This document shows positions 8,522-53,355 of a stretch of DNA of 64,000 bases, piece after piece. The notes beneath the pieces are model-generated. The model made no database searches. It was not told the DNA's origin and saw nothing but the letters and a program-made list of their open reading frames with translations. Both the position numbers and the translations under genes were made by a program. The stretch covers positions 19,492,560 through 19,556,559 of the forward strand of contig NC_134027.1 in the NCBI RefSeq assembly GCF_964204645.1, written 5' to 3'. This stretch comes from Tubulanus polymorphus. Lineage: Eukaryota > Animalia > Nemertea. The stretch's first letter is position 1, and each line of letters starts with the position of its first letter.

Positions 8522-9293
8522 ATTTTATTTTTTTTAACCATTGAAATTTTGTTATAAACATAACATTAACAATATACAATGGACAACCACAAATCGTCCG
8601 GGGACATTACATGTGGTCTCGGAACGAGAAGAAAAACAAAATATTACGTAAATATAGCGGTTACATGACATATTAGTTACATGATTGTTGAAAGTCTACA
8701 TTCTACAGGTTTCAAGAATCTGAAGGTATTTTCTCATCGTATGGGTCTTAACGAAGTCGGTGACAATATAGAATAAACATGCTTAAGCCAAGAAGATAAA
8801 TGTTCAAGTAATTCATGGTCACTCAAAGACGACAATATGCTGAATAAAAGATGCGCTTATACTTATTATTTGTAGATTTACAGCATGATCAAGATTATTG
8901 CTTCCATGAATGAGGAAATTACATTTATCTTTTTGGCTTAAGTTTGAATAAATGTCATACTTCTTAGGAAAGGTGAAGGCGGTTTCTAAGGTTAACTATT
9001 GTGGGTTTACGACATTTGATAAAAAGGTGGATTGTATCAAAACGCTGACAACAAAACTCACATAAGTGAATTGCATTTTCAAAATTATGACGAAAATAGT
9101 GTGCTGGCAGCAGTAAATCCACTCGCAAGCGGTTCAGGTTTATTTCATTACTACGAGTTAAGATTGACATATCTGTAGTGCTGTAGGCTGTTTTTAGCGT
9201 ATTTGATCGAATTCTGGATTTATATCGAGACAAGGTTGGGAGCGTTCGAATTTCAGGCAAGGTGTCCATCTCGGCATTAGAGAATACATTTGG
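8522..9293 (-). mobile_element. 3' part of CR1/L2-like LINE (ORF2 C-terminus, 3' UTR, A-rich tail)
   Basis: ORF 8964-9269 NEINLNRLR..H..C..C..D..HLFIKC resembles a LINE ORF2 C-terminus; T-run at ~8524-8535; continues beyond P1 at 26250. Confidence 0.7.
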
Positions 9294-9363
9294 AGTAATT
9301 GTAAAAGTGGGGTTTCATACCAGAGTACTAGAGTACTAAACACCACTCATCACCACAAGTAAT
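9294..9363 (+). repeat. P1 left terminal inverted repeat
   Basis: Reverse complement of 26180-26249. Confidence 0.95.
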
Positions 9364-9670
9364 AATTCAATTGAGTATGAGACACCACTCATCACAGCTA
9401 GGCTCTAGTGAGAACGGACGATTGCTCTGTGACACACATATACAGTGAGTGCGCGTAACAACATCTGCGCGTGGATTGATCGATACAGTGAGTCTCTACT
9501 GAGAACGGTTATTAACGCGTGTGCTATTACTGTAGTACAGTGATTGCGTGTCAACTGTACCCGGATAAATAGATGCTGTGAGGCTTGGGTGAGAACGGTT
9601 AATAGCGCGCTTGTTATATAGGGGGAAGTAATCCCCACTCATTACCACAAGTAATTTTTTTTCCTTATAA

Positions 9671-9886
9671 ATGGAAAGGAATGATGAATACAATAAAAAA
9701 CTTATGTGGGGTTGGAAAAATTTACGGCCTTTAGAAAAGAAAGAAAATCAAATCAAATCTAATAAACTAGATTTACAGTTATATTTAGAACAGTTAACAA
9801 AGGCAAAGAAATTTATTGAATTATGGAACAATGATCCAAATAATGAACAATACGTTGAGGAATTTGATATCAAGGAACCGAAATGA
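9671..9886 (+). CDS. P1 hypothetical 71-aa protein
   Basis: TAAATG start behind the same ~105-bp leader as ORF 10022. Confidence 0.65.
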   Translation: MERNDEYNKKLMWGWKNLRPLEKKENQIKSNKLDLQLYLEQLTKAKKFIELWNNDPNNEQYVEEFDIKEPK

Positions 9887-10021
9887 CTTATCTAGACAGT
9901 TATAATTACTGCTCCTAATAGATGCTGTGAGGCTTGGGTGAGAACGGTTAATAGCGTGTTTGTTATATACAAGGGGAAGTAATCCCCACTCATCACTACA
10001 AGTAATTTCTTTTCCTAATAA

Positions 10022-10348
10022 ATGGGAGATAGAAAAGCATTCTTAGCAACAATAAATAACAGAATAAAACCAGCAAAAAAACAATTTGAAATAAAAAAGT
10101 TAGTTGATGTTACAAAAGAAATTGAACATAAAATATTGAAATTAGAAAAGATAAAAACTAAATATGGAGAGAAAGTATCAGCTAATTTAAGCTACTGTAA
10201 TGTTAGTACATCGCGAGAATTTAAAGTATTTTTACCTGATAAATGGGTTTCATTGAGTACAGAGGAATTAAAAGATTTAGAAGGATTTAAAATAATCTAT
10301 CATGGAAAAAATGAAGACGGCCATCATGATTTAGAAATTGTTGATTAA
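10022..10348 (+). CDS. P1 conserved small protein (possible OB-fold/ssDNA-binding)
   Basis: KKL..TKYGEK..VFLPDKW..YHGKN is shared with 34850-35178 and 53384-53725. Function is inferred only. Confidence 0.75.
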   Translation: MGDRKAFLATINNRIKPAKKQFEIKKLVDVTKEIEHKILKLEKIKTKYGEKVSANLSYCNVSTSREFKVFLPDKWVSLSTEELKDLEGFKIIYHGKNEDGHHDLEIVD

Positions 10349-11457: not shown

Positions 11458-11735
11458 TTAGTTGTGTTGTTGCAACTAGAATTCAACTAGAATGTAAATA
11501 GAATTCAACTAGATTAACAAGCTAGTTGAAATATTGTTGTTTTTATTTATTTCTTGTTAAATCTAGTTAATTTTTGTTCCAACTACTAATAACTAGAATT
11601 CAACTAGAACGTAACTAGAATTAAACTAGATTAACAAGCTAGTTGAAATATTGTTAAATCTAGTTGATTTTTATTCCAACTACCAATAACTAGAATTCAA
11701 CTAGAATTCAACTAGATTAACAAGCTAGTTGAATT
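11458..11735. repeat. Intergenic AACTAG/CTAGTT repeat array of P1
   Basis: Three units of aactagaattcaactagaa..aactagattaacaagctagttgaa; also present in P2 at ~37177-37478. Confidence 0.9.
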
Positions 11736-12343
11736 TAAATAAATTCATATTTAAATGGGTGTTGTAATATAAATAGTAATTTTGATCTTTTAATATTTTT
11801 CAACTTATCCATATATTCATTATGTAAATCATGTGGAATAATATCATTTTCCACAAGTGCATTTTTCATCGATTTTCTATCTTTATTGTAGAATAAAACT
11901 AGAAATCTAATGTTTTCTCTAAAGTCTTTAACAATTGAATTATATTTTTGATTTAAAACCCAAGTTGTTATCCCAAAATGTCTGCCAGAAAAAGCTAAAT
12001 AGCATAACTCACTTTCTCTAACTTTTGAATCATGTAGATTAGCACAATCATCTATAATGAATAATGTATTTGATCCTTTATAAATATCAATTGCTATTTT
12101 AATACAATTATCTAAATTTTCTTTTACTGTATTAGGATCTAATATAATAAATTTATTATTCCTAGTAATATTTCTATCATAAGTTTGATTAAATTCATAT
12201 GTTGGACAAAATGATACTATATTATCAAAATAGTTTTCATAAACAGTTTCTAATAAATTTAATATAAAATAAGTTTTTCCACAATTTGTTACACCAGAAA
12301 TTAACATATTATGAGGCTCAAATATGAATAATTCCTTATTCAT
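11735..12343 (-). CDS. A32-like (FtsK-HerA) packaging ATPase
   Basis: Walker A GVTNCGKT, Walker B FIIDD, GRHFGI and NQKY motifs. Confidence 0.93.
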   Translation of the reverse strand: MNKELFIFEPHNMLISGVTNCGKTYFILNLLETVYENYFDNIVSFCPTYEFNQTYDRNITRNNKFIILDPNTVKENLDNCIKIAIDIYKGSNTLFIIDDCANLHDSKVRESELCYLAFSGRHFGITTWVLNQKYNSIVKDFRENIRFLVLFYNKDRKSMKNALVENDIIPHDLHNEYMDKLKNIKRSKLLFILQHPFKYEFI

Positions 12344-13472
12344 TTATATATTTTTAATTTTACTTGATAATATCCATTCATTGAATTTATCCGGCCATCC
12401 AACCCATTTTACTAAAGAATATTTTTTTCTTTTAATAGTTTTTGTTTTTAATACTTTTTCAATTTTTATTTTCTTGTTCTAGATTTTCAGTAGTTAAACT
12501 CAATTCTTCTTCATTAAAACACCCATCAACTTCTTCGCCATTTAAATCTTCTAATTTATAGACATATGGTTTTGTTGTTATTACCTTTTTTATTTTATAT
12601 ATTTCTCTAGTAAAATTTCGATCGTATCCTTTATCAAATATCTTTTTATACTTAGAAATTCTAACATTTTGACCAACTTTAAATTTAGGTTCACCAAAAT
12701 CATCTACAAGAAATGCTGCATATAAATTATTCCAAACAATTTCAGCATTTTCAGGTTTTCTAGCATCAATAGGTTTCATTCCAATAGAAGAATGATAAGA
12801 ATTATTATATCCTTCTATCAATTCTGGTAAAACATCAATCCATTTAAAAGTATTATTTGCTGTAAAATATTTCCACATTCTTGTTCTTAATGTTCTATTA
12901 AATCGTTCAACAACTGCTGCTTTTTTATCCGATTTTGTTGAAAAATATTCAATATTATGATTATCTAAGAGTTCATGAACAAGTGAATTATCAAATTCTT
13001 TTCCATCATCAAATTGTATTTTTTCTGGTTTTAGTTTATCATCCGAAAGAAATTTTCTTAAAACATTTGATGTTTGTACAGCATCTTTTCTATAAAGTGG
13101 GAAATTCCATACATAACGACTAAAAATATCAATTATATTCAATAACCACCAATAATCATCATTATCTTTCTTAACATTTTTCATATCAATTAAATCTCCT
13201 TGCCACTGTTGATCTACATAACTTACCATAGTTTTACGAGTTTTATATTTTCTAACAATTTTTTTATGTGTTGTGTATGTTGGTTGTTCTAACATAAATT
13301 CATTTATATCTTTATATTTAACTAAATTGTGTGGGATTATCTTATCTAATTTATCTTGTTTTACTTTACGCCATTTATTTTTAGTAGAAGAATAAGCAAC
13401 CGAACTCTCAGGGTTGTAATATAAATTTCTTAAATATTGTTCTTTAGTATTAGGAGTTTTTTTACCTCCCAT
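12344..13472 (-). CDS. Retroviral-like (rve) integrase with C-terminal chromodomain (frameshift near 12465)
   Basis: QWQGDLIDM, IDIFSRY, QFDDGKEF, VERFNRT; the chromodomain VKWVGWPDKFNEW lies in the shifted frame. Confidence 0.93.
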
Positions 13473-13502: not shown

Positions 13503-14656
13503 CTAATATTGAATACTATCTAACTGTGAATTTACAATATTTAATTGTGCATCAGATATAATATAAATGTGGATTTTAAAATTTTTGTCTCCTCTTTTCT
13601 TTTTTATGAATAATTGTATTCCATCTTTAGTGTTCTGTAGTTTTTTCCCAGAACCATGTAATGAATTATCCTCTGTTGTTCTAAAATCTAACCATAATGC
13701 ATATTTATTGCCGGTATAATAATCAATTTGATTAATATTACAATTTTCAAATGATTTTACTTTTTCATTCATAAAATGTTTTCTAATTTCTGGCCACTGA
13801 TCTATCATTCTCATTCCTTGACAAAATATTTTATTTGCTATTCCTTCGATAGTTATTTCTACTTTTGTTATTTCAGGATTATAATAATTATCTACCTTTA
13901 TTGCACCATTAGAATATGTTGCAATTTTAAATTTATCAATATAATCATATAATAATGAAAATCCTTGATTGTATTGAGTTTGAATTATACTAGCAATATT
14001 TTCATTAGTTACTGTGTTATATTCTAAACATATATTCGATAATTTATAACCCATATCTTTAACAACGCTAGATAACACAATTTCATTTACAGGAGCAAAT
14101 GTTATCTCAAATATAATATCTTCTTGAATTACATATTTATATAAAGGTGCATTATTATTTATCAATTCAAAGTCTAATGGAATTTTATATTTGCTTCCAT
14201 AAATCTTTTTAACAAATTATCTGTGGCACGAGTTACTATTGCGTCATTAGCTCCTGATCTTAATTTATTATGGTTTTCTGATTGGATGCCTTGAAATATC
14301 ATATTATTTCTATTTTCTTTAGTTAACCATAAATCTTTATAATGCATAAATAAATTATAATCATCTAATGAAAAAACTGTTTCTGGACCAATCTTTATAG
14401 TTAATTTTTTAATCAAATATCTTCCAACATTATCAACAACATAATTATTATCATGACCGGTTACTTTTATATCGGCTGATAAATAAATACTATTTGGAAC
14501 ATAAAAAGTATTTTGTGTTAATCGAGGGATTCTAACATATAAAGTTTCATCGGGATTAATATTTGAAGGATTATGAGTAATTATATTATGTGATCTTTCT
14601 GCTTTAATAGCATTAGATATTCTAGAAATCTTAGGACTTATATAACCCCCACTCAT
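13503..14656 (-). pseudogene. Major capsid protein (probable double jelly-roll), frameshift plus 30-aa in-frame deletion
   Basis: Beta-rich ~415-aa family (ITHNPSNI..NVGRYLIKKLTIKIG). Lacks TVTINANDEIINENINFPRRSIKGILIFFT, which is present in P3. Confidence 0.75.
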
Positions 14657-21128: not shown

Positions 21129-24100
21129 TAACCATAAGGTAATGTTTTTATACCATCATCTAAAATATGCCTTTTATCATCAAATGGATTCAAACTAGTT
21201 TTTTTCAACTTCATTAATGTACATCTCGTGATCTTCTGATCTTAAACAATTCATTTTATGTTTCATTACAATTGATTTATATAAACACTTTATATAATCT
21301 TGAAATTCTATATGTTTATCAACCACATGTTTTGTTATTCCTTTTAACTTTTTAGCTTCACGATCTTTTGTTCTATAACTATACATTTTACTTCTTATTC
21401 CAACAAATTCAATCATTTCATCACCCCCTAATTCATCTTTAAATTTACCAGGAATCTTTTTATTATCATTGCTAAATAGTTCATGATCTTTTGGATAATT
21501 GCTAAAATCAAAATAATGTTTTAATGTTTTTAAGTCTTTTGTTATATCATTTGTCTTGATTTTTAGTATGTAACTATCGGTATTTTTTTGGATTAATGGG
21601 AACCCAGAATTGAATGTTCCATCATCTGTTGATAAATCATAAACATAGTCAGTTGGGTTATATATTTCAAATAAATCTTTAACTTCTTCTGTTAATTCTT
21701 TTTCTACATGCCTTAAATTAAAACAATTTGGTTTAGATTTAATTAATTCTATATTCATATTAAATCCTAATGAACTGCATAATATATTCAATCCTGATAT
21801 AGCAACTTTTCCTTTTTGAGCAAAGGATATTGTTTTGCGGTTTTGGAAACTTTTTGAACCATCTGCGGCATAGAATCCAATGAAGAACCACTTTCTTAAA
21901 TTATTTTCTGCATTTAATACATAATCTGGAACTATCTTTTCTTTTGTTGAAGTATTACTTTTCACTATTGCGTGAATATAGAATTCATCATTATATTTTA
22001 TAGCAAAATCTTTAGGATTATTTACAAGTATTCTATAAACTGCTGTTGATTTCATAACATCCATGATTCTAAATGTTTTATGTGAATAAACTTCTTCACA
22101 GAATTTCTTAATTCTTTCTAATAATTTTAAGTCTTGATTGCATAAATACCAACAATATTTATTACCCCAAACATAATTATACACACCTGCTGAACCCACA
22201 CCCATGAAAAATCCTTTGATAAAATATTCTTTTTCTTCTAATGTTTCGGGTTCTATATTATAAATATTATCAATTATTTCATCAAATGACATATGATTCA
22301 TTCTTTGGAAAAATCTTTTATGTGATAATTCATCTCCAATTTTTATATCAGTTGGTTTTATTTCATCGCCATTTCGTTTAATTAAACTATGATCTTCTGT
22401 AACATCTACAAATCCTAATTTAGTTCTAACTCTATAGATTTTCTTATTTGTTTTATGCCTAATAATATTCTTTAATTTTTTCCATCCATTTCTTGTCCAA
22501 ACATCCATTAAACCATTTATTTGTATTAATTCTTTTTCACCATATGAAATATAACATTCATTTTGTTTTGGAATTATTTCTGAAATTCTTCTTATCAATA
22601 TTTTATCATTACATTTTAATAATATTGGGGTGTCAGCTGTTACAGAATCAAAATATAATATTTCAATATGCTTTTCCCCAAAAAGTGGTTGTAAAACATT
22701 ATAATAAAAATCATACATTAATAATTTTGATATTTCTAAAACAGTTGAACCTATAAATATTGGTTTATTAAATTTCATTGAAGTTCTTTTTAATTTAACT
22801 GCTGTTAAATAATCTTCAAATCTTTTATTTCCTAAATGTGTAGGGCTTGATTGTAAATGTCTTAATCTTTCAGAATTATTTACTAATTCAATATCATTTC
22901 TATTTCTAATATTTTCACATGTTTTTCCATAAAAACTATTATTCATTAATTTGAAGAAATCTTTTTCAAAATCTGTTTTTGATATGGTTCTCTGTTGAGT
23001 ATTGAAATCTATATATTTTTCTAACCACTTCGATTGATTAAATTCAATATATCTATGTACTTTCTTTAATTTCATTCCTTGTTTTAGATAAAATTTAAAA
23101 ATTCTATAATGAACGATATAATTGTATTTATTATTTTGACTATTCAGTAAAAATTTGAGTATTCACTTAAATAACTATCATCTACAGTTAAATGTTCTGG
23201 GCAATAAGGTAAGTTTCTTGTTTTAAACTTTATATTTTCAGGATATTCTAAATCAACTACAAAGAAATAACCAATTGGTGCTTCATCTTCTAAACTCATA
23301 ATTGCGCTTTCCCAATTAGTTTTATCATCATTTTCAACTTCTGTTAATATAAAATTTTTATATGGTTGAGGTTGCATCATTGCCCAACCATATAAATTAT
23401 TGGCGTCAATATATAATAATTTATATTCATCATTTGCTTTAAAATACCTATTTCCCATAACACCACTAATTCCACCTCTAATTGATTTTTCAAATAATAA
23501 AACCATGTCTGGTTCTTTTAATAAATCTAATTCTACATTTGTATATTTTAAACCACATTGCCAGGTTAAACCAGGACTAAAGTAGCAATAACAAGGATCA
23601 ACATTAAAATGATTCAAATTAACTTCTCTAAATTTTTCAAATATGTCAGCCAATATAATAACATCTGATTTTAAATATAAATCAACTAATTCACCATGAT
23701 TTTTCATCTTAAAATGGTTCCAAATATTTAATGTTCTATTAAACACTTCGTCTTTTACATACTCCTCTTTTAATTGATCATAAAATTGATCTTTTAATAA
23801 TTCTGTTACATTAAAATCATTGTGTGTTTTATAAAATGAATAAGGAATTGCGCCTTTATATCTCAATAATTTAAAATCTTGTTCATTTGGATAATAATAT
23901 CGAGTTATAACAAAGTCATTATCAACTAAACTTTTTGATAAATTATCTTATGAACTTGCTAGAAATCTATAAGAATATAAAAATCTAATGCAACCAAATT
24001 GAAATGAAATATAATTTTCAGATGTTTTAGCTAATAGTTTAAAATCATATTTTCTTACATTTGCTTCATTCATAGCATTATATTCTTCTATTTCTTGATT

Positions 24101-26164
24101 AATTGTACCCAATTTCTTTAATAATTGTTTTATAAATAGATGGGTATCATAGCCGGATAAATTATGAAATAATATTGGAACGAAATTTACTTTTTTAGCT
24201 TGTAAATTGCAATCTTCATGAGCAGCTCCACGATATTTTGAATTTAAATGATCATGATGTCTAACTTTTTTATCAAATGAATAAAAACGTTTTTCACAAT
24301 AACAACAATGAGTTGCATAATTAAAATCAATTTCATCTTCTTTTGTCATAACTATTCTTTTAATTTTGTTTAATAATTTTGCAAAATCACTTTCTAATTC
24401 AATCATTTTATCACAAAAATCATTAACTACATTTTCACCTCTAAAAGAAATATATTGACTTTCATATAATTCAGGATAATTTGATTTTATATAAATTCCA
24501 TAAGCAGCAGCTCTTTGATGAACTTTTTTAATTGTATTTATAATTGGTGGGTCTTGTATTGTGTCTTCATTTAATTCATTTCCTTTATCCATTGATTTTA
24601 ATAATTGCTTTTTGTTATATATTTCTTTTCTATCTTGATCAGTTAATTCTTTATTCAACGATTCAAAATCCCCATAAATTACAAATGGAACAATATTCTT
24701 AAATTTATGATTAGTAAATTTCAACTTACAATCTTTTTTTGTTGGCATTATTAATTTACAAAAATCTTTATTATCGCATAATTCTTTATGTTTTAGTAAC
24801 GCATTCTCAGTCATAAATTTAGATAAACATTTTCTACATAGATAAATTTTACGATGATGATCACTTTCTGTTGTTCTAAAGAATAAATCAATTTGTTTTA
24901 ACCACATATAATGTTCATTTTCATCTTTTTTGTAATATAACAAATCTATAACATTTTCATCATCATAATATTCTGTTAAATATAAAGCTTCCAATGTATA
25001 ATCTTTAATATTTTCACCTTTTGTCTTTGGTAATTGCATTAATTCAAATACATTTATTTTTAAATTATTAACTTTTTCTATTTTAGGAATCATTTTTATA
25101 GTTACCGGATATTGATTAATTTTATATAATGTTTCATATTTCCGGTAATTTGTTATTCTAAAACTATGCGTCATATCTTCTGTTGGGTGTAAGCAACTTA
25201 TAATCGCCCACAGAAAACATTTATTATCATCATTCTGCATATTAATTACTGCATTAGTTTTAAATGGTAATTTAATATAACTTGATGCTTTCACATCCTT
25301 TTCTATTATAAAGTTTGAATCATTTTTAAACATTTTATTACTTTTTGATGTTTTATTTCTTTTTGTATTATAAACATTTAAATCTAAATATATAATTTCA
25401 TTCAATGTTAAGCCAGAACCCTCAAAATATCTTTCTTCAATATGACGTTTAAATTCATTTAATATTTTTTCTAACTTCTCTTTTATTTGTGTTTTTGAAA
25501 TTATTTCTTCAGAGAGTGTTTGAATATTATAATTCATTTTTTCTTCTGACTTTATAAAACTTACTTTCCCAGAGATACTAATTTTTGGATATTCAACATC
25601 TGTTATCAAATCTAGTATTTTTTCTATTATTTCATTAAATTTACTATAATCTTCTATTGTTGTACCTTTAAAAAATCTAAATATAATAGCTGCAGGACCA
25701 ATTTTACTATGTAATGTTTCTAAGATTTCAATTGTATCTTTTATTTCTAGTGAATCAATATAATTTCTAACATTTTCCATGTAAGGTTTATTTGAAATGG
25801 ATTTAGTTTTTGAAGTTGATTCTTTTACTTGTTGAGGTTTATCATCAAAATAATCTTTTCCTAAAACATTATTACTCAAATTTTGGTTGTGTTTTTGTGA
25901 TTCGAGATGTCTATTATAATTCCTTTTTACTATAAATTCATTACAAACTTCACATTTTATTTCATCCACATTCATATTTTCTAATCGTTCTTTTCTTTCA
26001 TTGGAATTTTCTGGGGTTTCAAAATCTATAACATTTTTTATATGATTTGAAGATTTTTCATGTTTAGATTTATTAGATTTATCGATGTATTTTTTACAAT
26101 ATTGGCAATAATATTGATTTTTATTAACATTATTGTTTTCTGTTTGGTACTCACTCTCTCCCAT
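21125..26164 (-). CDS. Protein-primed DNA polymerase B (Zn fingers, TP/vOTU-like region, EndoVII insert, intein), several frameshifts
   Basis: YGDFES, FHNLSGYD, YLKSDV, YIDANNLYGWAM, KLMNNSFYGKT and YFD|TDS motifs over ORFs 23948-26164, 23144-23866 and 21195-23075. Confidence 0.95.
21582..22646 (-). mobile_element. Intein (355 aa) with LAGLIDADG homing endonuclease in pPolB
   Basis: YFD|SVTADTPI..VTEDHSL..FIKGFFMGVGS..FFIGFYAADGS..YVYDLST..IQKN|TDS; absent from P3 pPolB (YLDTDS). Confidence 0.95.
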
Positions 26165-26866
26165 TTATTAGGAAAAAAAATTACTTGTGGTGATGAGTGG
26201 TGTTTAGTACTCTAGTACTCTGGTATGAAACCCCACTTTTACAATTACTATTTGGGATGACATAATTTTGGCAGAGGGAGTCGAAGAAAACGGGCGTCTT
26301 TCTCTCAATGCACGTACTGGAATGGACCTAAAACTATGAAAGAGGTTAGAAACATAAGGAGGACAAAGTCTGTTTGAAGCTTTGAACATATAATTCCTTT
26401 TTACTATAAATTCATTACAAACTTCACATTTTATTTCATCCACATTCATATTTTCTAATCGTTCTTTTCTTTCATTGGAATTTTCTGGGGTTTCAAAATC
26501 TATAACATTTTTTATATGATTTGAAGATTTTTCATGTTTAGATTTATTAGATTTATCGATGTATTTTTTACAATATTGGCAATAATATTGATTTTTATTA
26601 ACATTATTGTTTTCTGTTTGGTACTCACTCTCTCCCATTTATTAGGAAAAAAAATTACTTGTGGTGATGAGTGGTGTTTAGTACTCTAGTACTCTGGTAT
26701 GAAACCCCACTTTTACAATTACTATTTGGGATGACATAATTTTGGCAGAGGGAGTCGAAGAAAACGGGCGTCTTTCTCTCAATGCACGTACTGGAATGGA
26801 CCTAAAACTATGAAAGAGGTTAGAAACATAAGGAGGACAAAGTCTGTTTGAAGCTTTGAACATATA
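25915..26866. repeat. 474-bp tandem duplication covering pPolB 5' end, right TIR, TSD and LINE flank
   Basis: 25915-26388 is repeated at 26389-26862; second TIR ends at 26723 and is again followed by ATTTGG. Confidence 0.93.
26180..26249 (-). repeat. P1 right terminal inverted repeat
   Basis: Ends AATTACT followed by TSD ATTTGG. Confidence 0.95.
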
Positions 26867-40647: not shown

Positions 40648-41069
40648 TGTTCTAAATCGACGAAACGAATCCTCGAAAATCTATTGAACACGAAAGCACA
40701 GCTACATTTCAAACTCAGCGTGTTTATTTTAACAACTAACGATGCTGCACTATGCCATATAATGCCGGTTTGCTACAAATATGAAAATATATATATAAGT
40801 AATCAATTCAATTTATGCAAAGAAAACTAACCCACAGCAAATCTAAAAATTCGTTACTTACAATTACTGTAGCTCCTCGAGCAAGTTTCTACGAAAATGA
40901 CCAATGCTCAACTGTGAGATATTCAATATATACTGTATATATAATGTACTAGACTTAGTAACAACAAAGCATGGAGAGGTTCAATGATGGGTTACAAATC
41001 CTACAGTACTAAAGCTAAACTCGACTACAATAAAATTCTATAGCAGCAACCGGACTTCAATTTACAACA
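40648..41069 (-). repeat. BEL/Pao 3' LTR
   Basis: 422 bp; by eye two substitutions and one indel relative to the other LTR. Confidence 0.95.
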
Positions 41070-41220
41070 CAGCACCTCCTAAACATCCGTATCAGACGGT
41101 GTTTGAAAATATAACGATATCATATTACAAAGATTACATGATTACTTCAAATACATATTATTGTCGTATCAAATATAAGTAATTATCTCGCACATACAAA
41201 TACAAATTTAATCAAGATAA

Positions 41221-44200
41221 TTATACAATACTCTCTTCCAATACGCAAAGCTTAACTACTGGTCGAACATATTCTGACGAAGAGGTTTTTACTTTTACCG
41301 AACGAATTCGTCCATCATTAGGACTAGCATAAACTTCAATAGAACGACCCAATGGCCATTGACCACGAGGAATGTCTTTGTCTTTGATTAACACTAAGTC
41401 ACCTAATTTGACATTTTCTGTATTTTCTAGCCACTTGCTTCTCATGGTTAAGGGTGGCAAATACTCTTTCAGCCAGCGACGCCAAAAGTGGTCTGCCAGA
41501 ACCTGGGACTGACGCCATCTTTTTCTACTGTTGATTTCACGCTCATGAAATACTCCAAGGGCCACGACAGAACTAGCACCCCCGTGTAAAAAGTGGTTTG
41601 GTGTAATGGGTGTAAAATCTGCAGGATCCACGCTATTATAAGTTAAAGGTCGACTATAAACAGATGCTTCCACCTCTATAAGCGTTGTTCGCAGCACGTT
41701 TTCAGGAAATGGTTGTCCTTTAAGGACTGATTTGATAGCCGCCTTTACCGTTCGAACCAATCTCTCCCAAACCCCACCAAAATGGGGGGCACAGGGACTA
41801 TTAAAGGTCCATTTAATACCCTTTTCATGACAAAAATTAGAAATACGAGATTGATTTAATTGTGTTAAACATTCTCTTAACTCTCTCTCAGCTCCAACTA
41901 AGTTGGAACCATTGTCACTATAAATATGACTCGGCTGACCACGTCGCCCAATGAAATTCCTCAGAATTAGTAAAAATGTGTCAGTTTCCATTGAGTCAGC
42001 TACTTCCAAATGTACTGCACGAGTTACTAAACACGTGAATAAGCAAACCCATACTTTGATTGTAGAACGCCCTCTTTTGATGAATAAAGGGCCAAAATAG
42101 TCTACCCCACTAAATTGAAAGGGTCTGCAATGGCTAGTAATTCTATGTGCGGGTAAATCCGACATAAAAGGAACTCTAGACTTAGCTAATCGACGACGAC
42201 AACCGAAGCACCGCGAAATCGCACGCTTTGCGACAGATCTAGCTTTAATTGGCCAGTACTTTTGACGAACTAATGAAATCAAGTGCTCTGGACCAGCATG
42301 GAAATGAATAAGGTGTTCTTTTCGTACAAGAAGCTCCGTGATATGATGAGAGAAAGGGAGAAGCAACTGATGGCGCGCCTCTACGGAAACATTTGGAGCA
42401 TTGTGAATCCTTCCACCTACTCTGATACAGGAGCCATCAAAAACTGGATCAAGACAGCGCAAAGAACTATGATCCTTTAACTTCCCCTTTTTAAGGAAAG
42501 AGAACTCCTCTGGGAATGAGTCAGGTTGGGCTTGAGAAACTAAGCATGTTTCCGCAAAATCAAAATCTTCCACTGTCAAAGTTTTTGCTTTTACAGCTGT
42601 ATATCCCAAACGTGGAACGTGTGAGGCAAAATTCCTGATAGCCCTTAAAATCCAAGCTGTTCTGCGTAACAAAGGGTACCAACGAGAATAATCCTCCGGC
42701 TGTACAAGACCCGTTAAGTCAATGACTGGCTCAGCCTGAGGAAATGCTAAGACTTTATTCACTACCTTAGTTTTCTTGAGATTTTCATCTATATCTGAAA
42801 TGATACCTAGATCAGGCTGAGACGGCCATTGCTTTTCAGGAACACGGAGAAATTCGGGACCTGCAAACCAACGATGCGAAAAAGTCAGATCAGAAGCTAA
42901 AAGCCCCCTTGAGCAATCGTCCGCAGGATTCGACTCGGATGCAATATACATCCACTGATTAACCGATGATATTTCACGAATTTCCCCCACTCTATTGGCT
43001 ACAAAAATCTTGAATCTTTTTTTTTCATTACGAATATATCGTAAAACAGTTTGTGAGTCAGTCCAATAAGAGACTTCAATGTCACAAATTTCTGACAGTT
43101 CTCGCTTCAAAACCTCACCCAAACGAACCGACATAACTGCACCTTGCAGCTCCAATTTCGGCATGGTTAAAGGATGTTTTGTAGGAGCTAAGTGAGTTTT
43201 TGAAGCGAGAAAGGTAGTTTGAAATGAACTATCAATCAAATAACGCAAATATGCTACACTACCAAATGCCCTCTCGGACGCGTCACTAAACAAATGCAAC
43301 TGTACATTACTAACAGAAGGAGAAAACAACTCATGGTGACGAGGAATTTTCAGCTCATGCAACAACTTCAACTCATTTTGCCATTCATCCCAGGTTACCA
43401 ATAAGTCCCCAGAAATATCTTCATCCCATTCGAACCCAGACCGCCATATATCTTGAATCAAACACTTGGCCCTAAGTATGAATGGTGATAGGAAACCTAA
43501 TGGATCAAAAATGGATGAGACAGCGCTTATGATACCTCGTTTAGTAAGTTTAACATCTTTGATAACAGGTTTAAATACAAAGGAATCATTCTGAGCGTTC
43601 CATTTCACACCTAAAGTCCGTTCTACTGATAAGTCACCTAAGTCTAGGTCTAACGAAGGGTTAGCAAGTTCTTCAGGGTGAATTTGGGATAGGACCCATT
43701 TACTTGATGACATCCACTTTGTGAGATGGAAACCTCCTTTAGCAAGAATATCTTTTACCTCATAAGCTAATTGCAACGCTTTGCTATCACCAGGAACTGA
43801 CTTGAGAAAATCATCCACATAGAAATTTCGCAAGACAGAATTTACAGCGATGCTACTAAAACAATCAATGTTATCACGAGCTGATCTTTTTAGAGCGTAA
43901 TTCGCACAACAAGGCGAGTCTCGAGCACCGAAAATGTGCACCAACATCTTAAAAACCTCCGGAGAACCATATGAGCCATCTGGCCGCCAAAGGAATCTCA
44001 ATGTTTCAGATTCGCTTTCAGAGGTTCTCACTTGATGAAACATCGCTTGTATGTCCGCAACAAGCGCTGTTTCAAATAAACGAAATCTTTGTAAGACACC
44101 AAACAAACTATTTAACAGATCAGGGCCTGTCATTAGTAAGTTGTTTAACGAAGAACCCCTGAACTGCGAAGCTGCATCAAACACTACCCGAAATTTACCC

Positions 44201-44958
44201 GGCTTGTTCGGGTTCAAAACGCAATGGTGAGGGAGATACCAAGTTCTAGGTGTCGAAATAATTTCTTCCTCCGGAGTCAACTTTCGAGCATACCCAGCGG
44301 AAATATAGCCATTAAGTGTATCACAATAGCCATTTTTAATTACAGAATCTTTACACAGGCGGTTTGTTAGCAAGTCAAATCTTCTCTTAGCTAATGGAAA
44401 GTTATTTGGTAAAACACTATTTTCATCTCTCCATAGCATACCTACTTGATAATGATCACCCACAAGTTGGGTTGTTTCTTCAAGAATTTTAAGAGCTCTT
44501 TGATCTTCAACCGATCCAATCTTATCAGGGTAAGTTACACCAAAGGATTCTGTTGACCAAAAGTTCTCAATTTGTCGTGAGAGTGAATTTTCATCAACAA
44601 GAGAGCATTCCGAAACAATTGAATGGACGTGAACATCGCACAAGTCATTTGACATGTTCCCAAACAAACACCACCCTAATCTAGTCCGAATAGCTAAGGG
44701 CTGATTTGATGTCCCTTCCCTTACCTCTAATTGTATATGTGCTCTAGGTACATTTGCACCCAAAAGTACTTTAACCTGACGTGGGAATGTATCAGGAAAT
44801 CGCAGACCCTCTAAATGTTTCAACTTATGAGGAGAAAATTCATTATATTTCTGAAGTGGACAACTGATATTACCAGATGTAGTCATGCTTGGGACACATG
44901 AATGACAAAGGATCATTGCTTCGAACGGTAAAGGAAACACGGCGAGATAACTGTGCAT
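41221..44958 (-). CDS. pol: BEL/Pao Pol (RT, RNase H, integrase)
   Basis: WYLPHH, RVVFDAA, FYVDD, FSDAS, MPKLEL, GVDYFGP, SDNGSN, WERLV motifs. Confidence 0.95.
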   Translation of the reverse strand: MHSYLAVFPLPFEAMILCHSCVPSMTTSGNISCPLQKYNEFSPHKLKHLEGLRFPDTFPRQVKVLLGANVPRAHIQLEVREGTSNQPLAIRTRLGWCLFGNMSNDLCDVHVHSIVSECSLVDENSLSRQIENFWSTESFGVTYPDKIGSVEDQRALKILEETTQLVGDHYQVGMLWRDENSVLPNNFPLAKRRFDLLTNRLCKDSVIKNGYCDTLNGYISAGYARKLTPEEEIISTPRTWYLPHHCVLNPNKPGKFRVVFDAASQFRGSSLNNLLMTGPDLLNSLFGVLQRFRLFETALVADIQAMFHQVRTSESESETLRFLWRPDGSYGSPEVFKMLVHIFGARDSPCCANYALKRSARDNIDCFSSIAVNSVLRNFYVDDFLKSVPGDSKALQLAYEVKDILAKGGFHLTKWMSSSKWVLSQIHPEELANPSLDLDLGDLSVERTLGVKWNAQNDSFVFKPVIKDVKLTKRGIISAVSSIFDPLGFLSPFILRAKCLIQDIWRSGFEWDEDISGDLLVTWDEWQNELKLLHELKIPRHHELFSPSVSNVQLHLFSDASERAFGSVAYLRYLIDSSFQTTFLASKTHLAPTKHPLTMPKLELQGAVMSVRLGEVLKRELSEICDIEVSYWTDSQTVLRYIRNEKKRFKIFVANRVGEIREISSVNQWMYIASESNPADDCSRGLLASDLTFSHRWFAGPEFLRVPEKQWPSQPDLGIISDIDENLKKTKVVNKVLAFPQAEPVIDLTGLVQPEDYSRWYPLLRRTAWILRAIRNFASHVPRLGYTAVKAKTLTVEDFDFAETCLVSQAQPDSFPEEFSFLKKGKLKDHSSLRCLDPVFDGSCIRVGGRIHNAPNVSVEARHQLLLPFSHHITELLVRKEHLIHFHAGPEHLISLVRQKYWPIKARSVAKRAISRCFGCRRRLAKSRVPFMSDLPAHRITSHCRPFQFSGVDYFGPLFIKRGRSTIKVWVCLFTCLVTRAVHLEVADSMETDTFLLILRNFIGRRGQPSHIYSDNGSNLVGAERELRECLTQLNQSRISNFCHEKGIKWTFNSPCAPHFGGVWERLVRTVKAAIKSVLKGQPFPENVLRTTLIEVEASVYSRPLTYNSVDPADFTPITPNHFLHGGASSVVALGVFHEREINSRKRWRQSQVLADHFWRRWLKEYLPPLTMRSKWLENTENVKLGDLVLIKDKDIPRGQWPLGRSIEVYASPNDGRIRSVKVKTSSSEYVRPVVKLCVLEESIV

Positions 44959-46705
44959 CGCTTGAGTGAAGTGTGTTGATAGTCAATACTTGTTTTTTAC
45001 CAGACAACCCTAAATCAATAGCCAGATCTTCACGGATTAATGTCACGTCACTCCCAGAATCCAGCAGACCATACGTCGATATACGTCTTCCGTTAGCACC
45101 CTGAACCACAATCGGCAAAACCTGAAAATACACGTCAGAACAATTACTATCGAGACCAAGAACTATATTGCGTTCTATTGCGCTAGGTGCTACACCTTGA
45201 CTACTACTGGCTTGCGATTCACTATTACAAGTGTCTAGATTCTGAGTTTGATTCTTTTGTTCAATATCATTAATTTTGATTTTACGTTTAACATGAAGCA
45301 GTGTATGATGTCTCTTGCCACACCCTGGTTCTTTACAGCAAGAAAGAGATTTGCAAGTCGCAATGAAATGACCAGGTGACAAACAATTAATACACAAACG
45401 TAATCTCTTGACTAGAGCAAATCTTTCATCTACCGATTTATCAATGAAATCTCCACAATTACTCACAGAATGACTACCTGAACAAATAACACATTCAAAT
45501 ATTTTCCCACCTGACACGCAACTGCTAGACATCTGTTTCGTGGAATTATTCACATTGATTTTCCGTGATCCTAAAGCATTACTAGAAAAATTATTACGTT
45601 TCAATTTCAACCTATTTTGTTGTAATGAAAATGGACCGAAGTCAGCGTCAACACAATCTTTGAGCCAACTTTCTAGATCAAACAATGTAGGATCTCGTTT
45701 TCGAGATATACGTCTAACGAATTCGTTCCATTTTGAACGCTTGTCAATCGGGATACGTTTTACAACTTTCTGTAATAAATCACTACTGCCAATTTCAGAA
45801 AGATAATTCATTTGTTTTAGAGTAATTAAGCAATCTCTCACACTAATGTAAAAGGAACGTAATGATATTGAATCATATGAATTTGTGGGTGGACCGTTCG
45901 TAATTGATTCAATATAAGCCCTAGCTACGTGTACTCTGTGTCCAAACACAAACTTTAGCTCCTTAAGGGAGCGTGCATAATTACAACCACTAAACCCAAG
46001 ACCTTGAATGAGCTCTCTGGCCTCACCTTTCACATGCGACTGCAGAAGGTCTTGACGTCTGGAATCTTTGATCCCGGGACGATTATGTACTTGCACATAA
46101 AACTGCTCAATGAACCTTGGCCATACAAGTGGTGAACCGTCGAACATCGGGAGACCAACTTTCGGTAAATCTCGATCAATCTCCATCTTGATAACGGCTT
46201 CTTCCAGGGAGGTTGATGATTCCACATTTACTATAGTTTCGACTCCTTCGACCAAATCATCGATCCACGCATCAATGGTCCTAAGCGACGAGTTGTTTAC
46301 AGCATTCGTCACGACATTCTCTGAAAGATCCTCTGCAACTGGATGCGACACGGAAGATGTAGACGACGCTTGGAAAACGGGTGCATTCGGATCAAGAGAC
46401 GAGTCTCTTTTAGCAAAATTGTCTAACCTTTCTAAAGCAACCATAGCTTTATCGAAATAACACTCCATCCAACGCCCAGCGGTTTCGATTTCTTCTTCAT
46501 TCTCGAGTACAGACATGAACTTGTCGTGAGCAGTTTGCAGATTTTGCAAACATCCAGTGATACGTTGCTTTGCCGGTTCAACAGCCGCCGATATGCGAAC
46601 TGAATCCGCAGCATCAATAGCACGAGTAAGCCAACCAGCGAGACTTGTACGAGTGGCTTTCAACGACTTACTTTTACTAGTATTTGAATCTTCGTTATCG
46701 GTCAT
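44870..46705 (-). CDS. gag: BEL/Pao Gag-protease
   Basis: LPMFDGSPL.W, three Cys/His knuckles ending GCGKRHHTLLH, protease LLDSGS; out of frame with pol. Confidence 0.93.
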   Translation of the reverse strand: MTDNEDSNTSKSKSLKATRTSLAGWLTRAIDAADSVRISAAVEPAKQRITGCLQNLQTAHDKFMSVLENEEEIETAGRWMECYFDKAMVALERLDNFAKRDSSLDPNAPVFQASSTSSVSHPVAEDLSENVVTNAVNNSSLRTIDAWIDDLVEGVETIVNVESSTSLEEAVIKMEIDRDLPKVGLPMFDGSPLVWPRFIEQFYVQVHNRPGIKDSRRQDLLQSHVKGEARELIQGLGFSGCNYARSLKELKFVFGHRVHVARAYIESITNGPPTNSYDSISLRSFYISVRDCLITLKQMNYLSEIGSSDLLQKVVKRIPIDKRSKWNEFVRRISRKRDPTLFDLESWLKDCVDADFGPFSLQQNRLKLKRNNFSSNALGSRKINVNNSTKQMSSSCVSGGKIFECVICSGSHSVSNCGDFIDKSVDERFALVKRLRLCINCLSPGHFIATCKSLSCCKEPGCGKRHHTLLHVKRKIKINDIEQKNQTQNLDTCNSESQASSSQGVAPSAIERNIVLGLDSNCSDVYFQVLPIVVQGANGRRISTYGLLDSGSDVTLIREDLAIDLGLSGKKQVLTINTLHSSDAQLSRRVSFTVRSNDPLSFMCPKHDYIW

Positions 46706-46734
46706 GATGAGCTTTCGAGTAATTCAAACTATAA

Positions 46735-47157
46735 TGTTCTAAATCGACGAAACGAATCCTCGAAAATCTATTGAACACGAAAGCACAGCTACATTTCAAA
46801 CTCAGCGTGTTTATTTTAGCAACTAACGATGCTGCACTATGCCATATAATGCCGGTTTGCTACAAATATGAAAATATATATATAAGTAATCAATTCAATT
46901 TATGCAAAGAAAACTAACCCACAGCAAATCTAAAAATTCGTTACTTACAATTACTGTAGCTCCTCGAGCAAGTTTCTACGAAAATGACCAATGCTCAACT
47001 GTGAGATATTCAATATATACTGTATATATAATGTACTAGACTTAGTAACAACAAAGCATGGAGAGGTTCAATGAAGGGTTACAAATCCTACAGTACTAAA
47101 GCTAAACTCGACTACAATAAAATTCTATAGCAGCAAACCGGACTTCAATTTACAACA
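46735..47157 (-). repeat. BEL/Pao 5' LTR
   Basis: 423-bp direct repeat. Confidence 0.95.
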
Positions 47158-49335: not shown

Positions 49336-52300
49336 ATGGAAGCAAATAAATACTACTGCCCAACATGTAATATCGATATAGATAAATCCTAAAAAGCAAG
49401 ACACAATAAAACTAGAACACATTTAGAGAATAAATTGAAACTAGAATATAAAGATGATATATTAGAAACTAAATTAGAAGAATTAAAGAATGAAAAAGAA
49501 ACATATAAATGTGATACATGTAATCAATCATTCAGTGATAAAAGATATTATAAAGAACATTTAAAATCTATAAGTCATATTAGAAATAAGAATAATGATA
49601 TTTTAGGTGAAGATTATTTTGATAATGATAACGATAAGAAACAGAAGACAATTAAAAGAATAAAAAATAAATTAAACAATAAAAGACCATATATGGAAGA
49701 TGTAAGAAATTATATTAATTCATTAGATAATAAAAAAGATATAGAGATAACCGAAGCATTTAAAAGTGATATTGGTCCAGCAGCTATCGAGTTTAAATTT
49801 CATAATGGAAAAACATTAGAAGAAAATAAAAAACATTTAGAAAATATGAAAGAAATAATAGAAATAATTACAGATGTTGAATATCCTAAAATTAGTATAT
49901 CAGTTAAAGTAAAGTTTATAAAATCTGAAGATAAACCAATATATAATATAAATTCTCATTCACAACATATTATATCTAAACAACATATAGATGATAAATT
50001 AAATAAATGTTATAATGAAATAAAAACTAAAATAGAAGAGAAATATTTTGAAGGATCTGGTTTAATATTTGATGAGATAATATTTATAACTTTACATGTT
50101 TATAACACAAAATATAATAAGTTAACTAAATCAAAACCAATTGATGAAAATAATTTATCATATTATAAAGAACCAGATATTGAAGCATCGAGTTATATTA
50201 AACTACCATTTAAAACTAATGCTGTAATAAATATACAAAATGAAGATGATAAATGTTTTCTATGGGCTATAATAAGTTGTTTACATCCAACAGAAGATAT
50301 TACACATAGTTTTAGATTAACTCATTATAAACAATTTGAAAGTAATTATAAGATAGATAAGTATCCTGTTAGAATTAAAAATATCCCAAAAATAGAAAGA
50401 GATAATAATTTAAAGATAAATGTATTTGATTTAATCAAATTACCAAATACAAAAGGAAATAATATTAAACATTATACATTAGAACCTTTATATCTATCAA
50501 AAGATTATGATTCAAATGATGTTATAGATATACTATATTATGAGAATCATTATATGTGGATTAAACTAATCGATTTATTTTTTAGAACAGAAAGTGATCA
50601 CCATAATAAAATATATCTATGTAGAAAATGTTTACATAAATTCAGTAATGAAAGTACATTATTAAATCATAAACAAATATGTGATAATCATGATTATTGT
50701 AAATTAGTTTTACCAAATGAAAAAGATAAAATATTAGAATTCAAAAAATATGATTACAAAAATAAAGTACCATTTGTAATATATGGAGATTTTGAATCAT
50801 TAAATAAAGAATTAACAGATAAAGATAGAAAAGATATATATTATAAAAGAAAGAAATTAAATTCTAATGAAAGTGATTATTCAGATGAACCACCAATAAC
50901 AAATACAATTAAAAAGATTCATCAATCAGCTGCAGCTTTCGGGATATATATTAAATCTGATTATCCAGAACTAATTGAAAGTGAATATTATCAGTATAGA
51001 AATGAAAATGTTATTAATCATTTTTGTGACTTATTAATTGAATATGAAATAAGATTTAATGAAAAGTTGAATACAAATAAAGAAATAATTATGACAGAAG
51101 AAGATAAAGAAGTATTTGCGTTTGCAGATAAATGTTATTATTGTGAAAAGATATTTAATTATAAAGTTAAAAAAGTAAGAGACCATGATCATTTGAATGG
51201 AAAGTTTAGAGGCGCTGCACATGAGAATTGTAATTTGCAAGCCAAAAAAGTAAATTTTGTCCCCATTATATTTCACAATTTATCGGGGTATGACGCGCAT
51301 TTATTCATTAAGCAACTGTGTCATAAAATAGAAGAAATTAATAATGAAATAGAAATATTAAATTCAAATAAATCAAAAGATAAAATACCAACGAATGTTA
51401 GCTAAAACATCTGAGAATTATATATCATTCCAATTTGGTTGTCTAGATTTATAGATTCATATAGATTTCTAGCAAGTTCATTAGATAATTTATCAAAATC
51501 ATTAGTTGATGATGAATTAAAGATATTAAAAGAATATTACCCAAATTATGATGATTTTAAATTAATGAGATATAAAGGCGCAATTCCATATTCTTTCTAT
51601 AAAAATCATAATGATTTTAAAATAACTGAATTATTGAAAGAACAATTCTATGATGAATTAAAAAATGAATATGTTAAAGATGAAGTCTATAATAGAACAT
51701 TGAATATTTGGAATCATTTCAAAATAGAAAATCATGGACAATTAGTAGATTTATATTTAAAATCAGATGTATTATTATTAACCGATATATTCGAAAGGTT
51801 TAGAGATGTAAACCTAAAATATTTCAATATTGATCCTTGTCATTGTTATTCTAGCCCAGGATTAACATGGGATTGTGGTTTAAAATTTACAGATATAAAA
51901 ATGGATTTGTTAACAAATATAGATCAATTACTATTATTTGAAAAATCTATAAGAGGAGGTGTTTCAGGTGTATTGGGTGATAGATATTTCAATGTAAATG
52001 ATAATCCTGGATATAAATTATTATACATAGATGCAAATAATCTTTATGGTTGGGCAATGATGGAACCACAACCTTATGGGATGTTTGAAATAACTGAAGT
52101 TTTACAAATTGATAAATTTGATTGGAAGAAAAGAATCCTAGATATTGCAGATGATTCAGATACTGGTTACTTCTTTGTTGTAGATTTAGAATACCCTGAA
52201 AATATTAAATTCAAATCTAGAAATCTAGCATATTGTCCCGAACATAAAACTGTTAAACATGAAGAATTATCAAATTATCAAAAAAGAATTAAACCTGAAA

Positions 52301-53355
52301 ATCATATTCATACAGAAAAGTTAATGGTAACTCAAGAAGATAAATATAATTATGTAGTACATTATAGAATGTTGAAGTTTTATTTGAATCAAGGAATGAT
52401 ATTAAAAAAAGTACATAGATATATTTCATTTAATCAATCTAAGTGGTTAGAAAAATATATAGATTTTAACACCAAACAGAGAACTGAAGCTAAAACAGAT
52501 TTTGAGAAGGATTTTTTTAAATTGATGAATAATGCATTTTATGGAAAAACATGTGAAAATATTAGAAATAGAAATGATATTGAGTTAGTTAGTAATGGTA
52601 AAAGAATTAGACATTTGCAATCGTATCCGAAATTCATAGGTAATAGAATATTCGATGAAAATTTAGCTGCAGTTAAATTAAAAAGAACTTCTATGAAGTT
52701 CAATAAACCTATTTATGTTGGAGCTGCAGTTTTAGAAATTTCAAAGCTATTGATGTATCAATTTTATTATAATGTTTTACAACCCCATTTTGGGGAAAAA
52801 CATATAGAAATCTTATATCTAGATACAGATTCTTACATATTAAAGATAAAAAGTGATAACATAACAAAAGACTTAAAAATATTAAAACACCATTTTGATT
52901 TCAGTAACTATCCAAAAAATCATGAACTATTTAACAATGATAATAAAAAAGTTTCTGGGAAGTTTAAGGATGAATTAGGTGGTGAAGAAATGATAGAGTT
53001 CATTGGTATTAGATCTAAAATGTATTCATATAAAACTAAAGAACATGAAGCTAAAAAGTTAAAAGGAATTACCAAAAGCGTTGTTGAAAAGAATATTCAT
53101 TTCAAAGATTACATCAATTGTATATTTAATGAAGAAGTTAGAAAACATAAAATGAAATGTTTAAGATCTGAAGATCATGAAATGTATATTGAAGAGATAG
53201 AGACGATAAGTCTAAACCCATTTGATGATAAAAGATATATTTTAGATGATGGAATCCACACAGTCGCCTATGGTTGCAATTTAGATGAATATATAAAATT
53301 CAAAAGAGAAGAAACAAAAGAAAATGAGATTATGAAAAGGATTCTAGCGTGTTAA
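49336..53355 (+). CDS. P3 protein-primed DNA polymerase B, intein-free (stop ~49390, frameshift ~51390)
   Basis: DDKCFLWAI, YGDFES, RDHDHLNGKFRGAAHENCN, YIDANNLYG, KLMNNAFYGK, YLDTDS. Confidence 0.95.

Follow-up and report, generated by a model that had tools for sequence, protein, structure and literature searches.

Polinton P1 and its broken polymerase

The window, i.e., the whole 64-kb stretch of DNA that was analyzed, contains a Polinton/Maverick element, P1, with the following features.

9294..9363 (+): left TIR of P1, 70 bp, begins 5'-AGT; a 6-bp TSD stands before it at 9288-9293
11735..12343 (-): A32-type packaging ATPase of P1 (Pox_A32, E 8e-12)
12459..13472 (-): retroviral-type integrase of P1 (rve, E 5e-10)
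13503..14656 (-): fragmented major-capsid-like gene of P1, with 72-88% identity to ORF 59128-60192
21131..26164 (-): host protein-primed PolB of P1, with one in-frame stop and two frameshifts; ORF pieces 23948-26164, 23144-23707 and 21195-23075
26180-26249: second copy of the right TIR, part of a 478-bp tandem duplication
26654..26723 (-): right TIR of P1, 100% match to the left TIR; the same 6 bp stand after it at 26724-26729

The protein-primed polymerase (pPolB; PF03175) and the integrase (rve) both match their profiles above cutoff and are hallmarks of Polintons/Mavericks. The TIRs of these elements start with 5'-AG and are accompanied by a 6-bp TSD, a rule with which the TIRs and the TSD of P1 agree. 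As the perfect 70-bp TIRs and the 6-bp TSD lie within host repeat DNA, P1 is a Polinton of ~17 kb integrated in a chromosome, and its GC content is ~20-26% compared to mostly 32-47% in the flanks. On our reading of the adjacent fragments, the TSD of P1 appears to sit in a LINE remnant. The counterpart of the capsid-like gene in the neighboring Polinton P3, ORF 59128-60192, gave a weak Capsid_N match below cutoff (E 0.01), and no protease gene was identified among the window ORFs scanned with Pfam.

Three lesions disrupt the P1 polymerase, and two in-frame stops likewise disrupt that of P3. By inference, the P1 polymerase is assigned to the EndoVII/HNH-insert class, which is Beta-like; Pfam places an EndoVII/HNH-type insert upstream in the P3 polymerase and in its relatives. 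At the right end of P1 a perfect 478-bp tandem duplication (25915-26866), either real or an assembly artefact, includes host flank as well as the TSD, the TIR and the beginning of the polymerase. Moreover, in front of a small left-end ORF (10022-10348) lie degenerate internal copies (9568-10025) of a TIR segment, the same one that is found before the start codon of the polymerase.

A predicted class-1 intein in the active site of the P1 polymerase

The polymerase is interrupted at motif C by an insert with the following parts (a slash within a motif marks the splice junction).

21582..22646 (-): intein, 355 aa, from Ser1 to Lys-Asn, inserted at YFD/TDS (motif C) of the protein-primed PolB
22317..22646 (-): N-terminal Hint (splicing) region, ~residues 1-110, with Ser1 and block B Thr83/His86
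21708..22286 (-): two-domain LAGLIDADG homing endonuclease, ~residues 121-313, second motif intact
21582..21686 (-): C-terminal Hint region, ~residues 321-355, with block F Asp337, the penultimate Lys and the terminal Asn

An in-frame insert of 1065 bp splitting YFD/TDS had been proposed in the original prediction, and this is confirmed by the frame and by alignment: the insert (21582-22646, minus strand) is stop-free over 355 residues from SVTADTPI to QKN and in frame with ORF 21195-23075, while its flanks are 81% (144 aa) and 76% (127 aa) identical to the intein-free P3 polymerase (51565-53355) and abut there at YxD/TDS. The DNA alignment of P1 and P3 halts at 22647 and restarts at 21583, so that exactly the insert is omitted. 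The canonical residues of a class-1 intein are present, namely Ser1, Thr83 and His86 in block B (TEDH), Asp337 in block F (YVYDL), Asn355 and the +1 Thr, and the motifs noted earlier (Ser1, TEDH, two LAGLIDADG-like helices of which the first lacks its acid, YVYDL, KN/T) are all as claimed. Thr83 and His86 are invariant in an alignment of 36 rows. The penultimate residue is Lys354 instead of the usual His and is His, Lys or Ser in relatives; inteins without a penultimate His can splice. The first LAGLIDADG motif of the window copy lacks the acidic residue and the second keeps its acid.

The profile search that had been suggested for the Hint and LAGLIDADG domains gave matches above cutoff for TIGR01445 (intein_Nterm of NCBIfam; 30.9 bits, cutoff 24.5) and for LAGLIDADG_3 of Pfam (23.3 bits, cutoff 22.5), whereas Intein_splicing of Pfam matched with E 9e-7, yet under its cutoff (29.2 vs 35.8). 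An AlphaFold model built on the 36-row alignment (mean pLDDT 90.3, pTM 0.90) has a Hint and a LAGLIDADG fold, and its best Foldseek matches in the PDB are structures of intein-homing endonucleases (E 6e-16, TM 0.66); profile, model and Foldseek agree on two LAGLIDADG helices and an I-DmoI-like fold. PI-PkoII, TliVMA, PhoVMA, PI-PfuI and PI-SceI (PDB 2cw7, 7qsu, 7qst, 1dq3, 1vde) share the Hint and the two-domain LAGLIDADG architecture (Foldseek E 6e-16 to 1e-9, TM <=0.66), but they are 10-17% identical and reside in other host proteins or at other sites.

Residues and fold identify the insert as a class-1 LAGLIDADG intein at the known PolB motif-C site, for which splicing is predicted. The polymerase would be translated as a single precursor including the intein; judging from the conserved residues and the fold, an N-O shift at Ser1 aided by block B would be followed by attack of the +1 Thr and cyclization of the terminal Asn, rebuilding YxDTDS. 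Without splicing, the catalytic aspartates would lie 355 residues apart. A fusion of Hint and nuclease domains that does not splice would resemble the HNH or VSR domains of Polinton polymerases, which are known to tolerate inserts of nuclease domains, as described in the relevant passages of 10.1101/2023.08.22.554363. We regard this as highly improbable here as the insert splits the catalytic DTD, carries each of the four canonical residues at its junctions, sits where the PolB inteins of archaea and giant viruses sit and has a precise empty form.

Two further candidates were rejected. A Hint domain of the Hedgehog/Hog type does not agree with the nuclease, with an Asn at the end or with the existence of an empty allele. 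An assembly artefact is ruled out because reads span the whole insert and the precise empty form also occurs in reads.

The empty site in P3 and the element P2

52816..52833 (+): empty motif-C site YLD/TDS in the polymerase of P3, junction 52824/52825; the polymerase has two internal in-frame stops

The expectation of an intein-free YLDTDS ~30 kb away in the P3 pPolB was correct, the precise junction (52824/52825) lying 30.2 kb from the intein. Regarding the role of P3 as a homing target, the empty site itself stands. Direct homing from the window copy to the P3 site is unlikely, given that the motif 1 acid is lost, both polymerases are pseudogenes and the P1 and P3 sites match at 24 of 30 nt.

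The packaging and structural proteins of P1 and P3 are 78-89% identical and the polymerase pieces 63-67%, an unevenness which suggests that modules have been exchanged between Polinton lineages. At the DNA level (P1 10347-25883 vs P3 49584-63061) the structural genes are 87-91%, the polymerase 74-78% and integrase/ATPase 78% identical, and the orientation of genes differs. A third, partial Polinton, P2 (34815-48867), has no polymerase match in the window and is split by a BEL/Pao retrotransposon (~40648-47157), the 423-bp LTRs of which are 99.3% identical.

Occupied and empty alleles in genomic reads

As a stand-in for the proposed genome-wide count of intein-positive and intein-free copies, occupancy was estimated from read depth in X5, a 2026 genomic read run, 12% of which was read and whose species label is the same as that of four runs of one study holding 44-51% of the sampled words. 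At 90% likeness, the depth is ~180 over the intein and 200-260 in neighboring bins of the polymerase; at 80% likeness, it is 146-265 in 21 intein bins (mean ~216) compared to 529-733 in four flank bins. At the latter likeness 66 reads (44 + 22) skip exactly 1065 nt and eight more skip 1071-1076 nt. The drop in depth together with the 1065-nt skips shows that occupied and empty alleles coexist; roughly 30-40% of the polymerase copies at least 80% alike in X5 are occupied. With about two thirds of the related copies in X5 being empty, homing is far from saturating there.

At the codon lacking the first nuclease acid, 247 of 250 X5 reads differ from the window, i.e., the loss of the motif 1 acid is private to the window copy, which is a dead integrant, a fossil with a nuclease lesion of its own. 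Synonymy was classed for 14 of the 16 intein variants among 40 of the 84 rows of the variant table. Among variants at 61-81% read share, eight of the ten listed are synonymous compared to 19% expected; at a read share of at least 88%, three of the four listed are non-synonymous. This fits purifying selection on the intein while the family multiplied, and decay after the window copy had integrated.

The host of the elements

No conserved cellular gene was found in the 64-kb window, the flanks consisting of decayed repeats and microsatellites; two of 11 ORF fragments from the flanks have a Pfam match, both to reverse transcriptase. The excerpted text of PMC3118150 describes BEL/Pao as a metazoan subclass. 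Of 120 long P3-polymerase relatives listed, P0318, a coral adintovirus PolB, alone has a eukaryote-derived name. With a BEL/Pao element in the neighboring Polinton and a coral adintovirus as relative, the repeats and relatives indicate that the host is very probably an animal.

If the host were not an animal, or if the element were co-assembled sequence of a free virus or a cobiont, the intein would merely be a new viral one. The window's want of a conserved cellular gene agrees with this, but integration is evident from the TIRs and the 6-bp TSD, which are surrounded by host repeats, BEL/Pao is metazoan according to the same part of PMC3118150, the only eukaryote-derived name among the listed relatives is that of the coral adintovirus, and a genomic run that bears this species label gives high depth. 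We therefore consider a non-animal or co-assembled source quite unlikely.

An intein family across Polinton polymerases

Sequence searches found many inteins at the same site in protein-primed polymerases. Unbroken intein-bearing precursors of 1476-1693 aa are encoded by P0061, P0085, P0086, P0088, P0092 and P0093, and intein-pPolB clusters count 136 and 121 members, some on contigs up to 1 Mb. At least seven Polinton polymerase lineages carry the intein, at 41-66% intein identity. The phylogenetic comparison of inteins and exteins, as had been suggested, places all pPolB-hosted inteins in one clade (SH-aLRT 100 with 114 rows; 100/100 with 48 rows and with 55 rows), while occupancy is scattered over the polymerase tree. 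A one-off or recent transfer into this genome is thus not borne out, as at least seven Polinton lineages share the one intein clade. The intein is nevertheless a minority trait: of 120 long P3-polymerase relatives listed, one carries it. The motif 1 acid is kept in 46 of the 47 pPolB-hosted inteins covering it, the exception being the window copy, and the motif 2 acid in 31 of 32 once a spurious pattern match is set aside, many rows being near-copies in both counts.

The same intein family also occurs at other D/TD motifs, in type II topoisomerases (DQD/TDG) and in ADP-ribosylglycohydrolase (GGD/TDT) (P0090, P0193-P0196, P0203, P0118), pointing to possible jumps of the family between unrelated genes. 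A motif-C intein of the same family is present in P0178, which bears the name of a DNA polymerase delta from the green alga Chloropicon primus.

Origin of the Polinton inteins

The nearest outside relatives of the Polinton inteins are motif-C inteins of RNA-primed PolBs. Metagenomic giant-virus PolB inteins at YGD/TDS are 40-45% identical over the full length and some of them end in G(F/Y)PLIVKN as the Polinton intein does; by tblastn, giant-virus contigs show 36-41% identity to the intein and have the C-terminal ending GFPLIVKN in common with it. Among the genes beside these giant-virus-type inteins are those for PCNA, a ubiquitin hydrolase and SET and RING proteins, in keeping with giant viruses. 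The nearest outside group also includes the small PolBs P0096, P0097 and P0100, in which Pfam finds DNA_pol_B only and which we take to be T4-like phage enzymes. Among annotated phage genomes there was one weak match (26%) in an unannotated record. Prokaryote genomes yielded mostly distant archaeal inteins; the nearest four full-length ones (L118-L121) fall among the giant-virus type and are either genuine or mis-binned. Two of them, L118:4001-5008 and L119:4001-5008, belong to PolBs of archaeal MAGs (one Promethearchaeota), and their inteins group with the giant-virus type, not with the Thermococcus/DPANN type.

With archaeal motif-C inteins as the root, the best trees place the Polinton clade inside a radiation dominated by giant viruses. 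Support for the Polinton clade and the nearest group as sisters is 93 in the 114-row tree, below 80 in the 55-row tree and 88 in the tree of the AU test, and a placement of the Polinton inteins outside the giant-virus radiation is not rejected by this test (p 0.35). The trees suggest that the intein probably came from a large DNA virus, in an old entry; a single entry out of the giant-virus-dominated pool of PolB motif-C inteins would likely account for the one Polinton clade, the direction of transfer being presumed from the tree. The original prediction named a co-infecting nucleocytovirus as the donor. Giant-virus PolB inteins are indeed among the nearest outside relatives (40-45%), whereas the nucleocytovirus is not pinned as the donor, with phage-type PolBs in the nearest group and p 0.35 in the AU test.

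Possible footprints of homing

After splicing, the freed intein would cut the uninterrupted motif-C site in another Polinton polymerase gene of the same nucleus, and repair on the occupied copy would transfer the intein together with some flank. The pattern to be explained in this way would be that both alleles coexist at high copy number, that occupancy is scattered, and that in one family the differences cluster at the site.

Occupancy changes nine times on a polymerase tree of 47 rows (16 occupied; empty rows thinned at 80% identity), and seven of these changes are forced by strong branches. Counting against homing, scattered occupancy also fits one gain with many precise losses, or ordinary recombination. 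An intein that splices and no longer homes would have entered once, in an ancestral Polinton polymerase, and descended vertically as the elements multiplied, its patchiness being due to such losses and to recombination. Within the EndoVII class the intein subclades do roughly track the polymerase clades, many empty copies persist alongside occupied ones in the X5 reads, and Polinton modules recombine anyway, as judged from the P1/P3 identities given above. Against this, both nuclease acids are kept across inteins 41-66% identical, which decay would not leave, P0088 demands at least one jump between polymerase classes, and two further observations, described below, are predictions of homing: the tract at the site in the P0086 cluster and the odd motif C of empty clade-B copies. 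Vertical descent without homing is therefore unlikely in our view.

The polymerase of P0088 has a strong PF03175 match and differs in class from the other intein hosts; in the sense of the relevant section of PMC8502044 it is assigned to Alpha. Its flanking polymerase is 22-29% identical to the other eight and its intein 41-49%, and the intein groups beside the window intein with support of 97/90 (48 rows) and 100/91 (55 rows). A tree excluding P0088 from the EndoVII-class inteins is not rejected by the AU test (p 0.086). On these trees, P0088 needs at least one putative jump of the intein between polymerase classes.

Twenty members of the P0086 cluster, from another host, were retrieved, and the 15 that exceed 1000 aa with the intein discounted were aligned; seven are occupied and eight empty, and occupied and empty copies are 94-99% identical. 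Of the 11 residues that separate the two groups, ten fall between -7 and +43 relative to the site, in an alignment of 1193 columns (Fisher p 2e-13, taking columns as independent although the copies are related). The occupied flank shares 31-32 of 46 residues with P0087/P0009, a sister subfamily, compared to 28 of 46 with its own empty sisters, and the N-terminal side is mixed. Such a tract is the footprint expected of co-conversion during homing, and would have arisen in this way; counting against homing, the clustered differences could also be a recombination patch. When the eight empty copies are compared with one another, the segment surrounding the site is tied for the most variable of the protein.

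Motif C reads DCDS, DTDA or DTGS instead of DTDS in 22 of 24 empty polymerases of clade B, the clade of P0086. The same shift is found in one of 85 polymerases of the clade in which no intein was seen, in none of nine in clade C and in one of nine in the window's clade. DCDS or DTDA, as seen in intein-free clade-B polymerases (e.g., P0218, P0222, P0244, P0474-P0479), are unusual for family B polymerases. These variants may represent escape from cutting; clades A and C lack the shift although they, too, bear inteins, and a few hosts may account for the clade-B rows. Resistant alleles and co-conversion have a precedent in an archaeal intein, as described in the pertinent passages of PMC10643990.

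A variant of the homing explanation differs in where the cut happens: homing would occur only while free viruses or excised copies replicate in co-infected cells, and the integrated P1 and P3 would be neither donor nor target. Widely common intein variants are mostly synonymous and the near-private ones of the integrated copy mostly non-synonymous (three of the four listed), and selection would therefore have acted before integration; moreover, the polymerases of P1 and P3, both integrated, are pseudogenes. However, cutting of integrated empty sites is nowhere excluded, and an endonuclease in the nucleus would meet many of them. We take this restriction to free replication as a serious contender, with somewhat less than even credence.

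Taken together, we consider it probable that the insert is a class-1 LAGLIDADG intein in the polymerase of an integrated Polinton, predicted to splice itself, and that intact members of the family are likely to home into intein-free Polintons in a likely animal host. Tentatively, and with clearly less confidence, the Polinton inteins might be viewed as a natural homing gene drive among endogenous copies in animal genomes, comprising one old capture from giant viruses, spread over Polinton lineages, a jump from one polymerase class to the other, conversion of empty copies together with their flanks, and escape of empty copies from cutting by a change of the otherwise fixed catalytic DTDS to DCDS or DTDA.

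Relation to known inteins and significance

Archaeal PolB motif-C inteins (Thermococcus, DPANN; L123-L159) share the site YxD/TD and the start SV(T/S)G with the Polinton inteins, but their identity is ~23-29% in the best segments, they have ~390 aa, and they form an outgroup far from the Polinton clade. Their site is presumably the one labelled pol-c. The PolB inteins of Mimivirus and other giant viruses, as far as covered by the excerpt of PMC549080 and with Mimivirus likened by description, are of the same type with Ser1, Asn and +1 Thr, ~350 aa, LAGLIDADG and a PolB host. In contrast to giant-virus PolBs, the Polinton host is protein-primed (flanks 21-30% identical) and belongs to a 17-kb element of high copy number that is integrated into a eukaryotic chromosome.

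Polinton/Maverick (adintovirus) pPolBs with HNH/VSR inserts concern the same kind of element and polymerase (passages of 10.1101/2023.08.22.554363, PMC11071308 and PMC8502044). The inserts described in these passages are without a reported Hint domain, whereas the insert in the window is a full intein that splits the active site and of which empty alleles exist. A passage of PMC11071308 suggests that the known nuclease inserts of pPolBs result from intein invasions. Chilo iridescent virus and other invertebrate iridoviruses have inteins as well (sections of PMC549080 and PMC5784728). As these are viruses of animal cells, splicing in animal cells has a natural precedent; in the terms of those sections, iridoviruses are free large DNA viruses, whereas the Polinton intein lies in an integrated element.

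In its relevant part, the survey of eukaryotic inteins in PMC5784728 names giant viruses, fungi, algae and some protists as bearers of inteins and lists neither a metazoan nuclear intein nor a Polinton host, and inteins are mostly limited to prokaryotes and unicellular eukaryotes according to a passage of PMC7765530. No Hint intein in a pPolB is described in the intein passages of PMC11071308, PMC12220804, PMC3671162 and PMC5718144. The word "intein" is absent from the main text of PMC11131425, PMC13215967 and 10.1101/2025.04.19.649669 and, by text-search counts, from PMC8502044, PMC8097293 and 10.1101/2023.08.22.554363. No prior report of an intein in Polintons or animal chromosomes was found in the literature searched, mainly open-access main texts. 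The novelty is the host, i.e., integrated multi-copy Polinton pPolBs in likely animal genomes with both alleles and putative homing footprints; mechanism and site were already known.

A selected homing intein in Polinton polymerases would mean that self-splicing and self-spreading elements reside in many copies in (likely) animal chromosomes. Intein-bearing polymerases will be missed or truncated by Polinton annotation. Occupied and empty alleles at 94-99% identity provide a countable system for homing, co-conversion and target escape. Finally, the intein would be a trace of genes passing between Polintons and large DNA viruses or phages, a point relevant to the question of Polintons replicating as viruses and sharing cells with other viruses.
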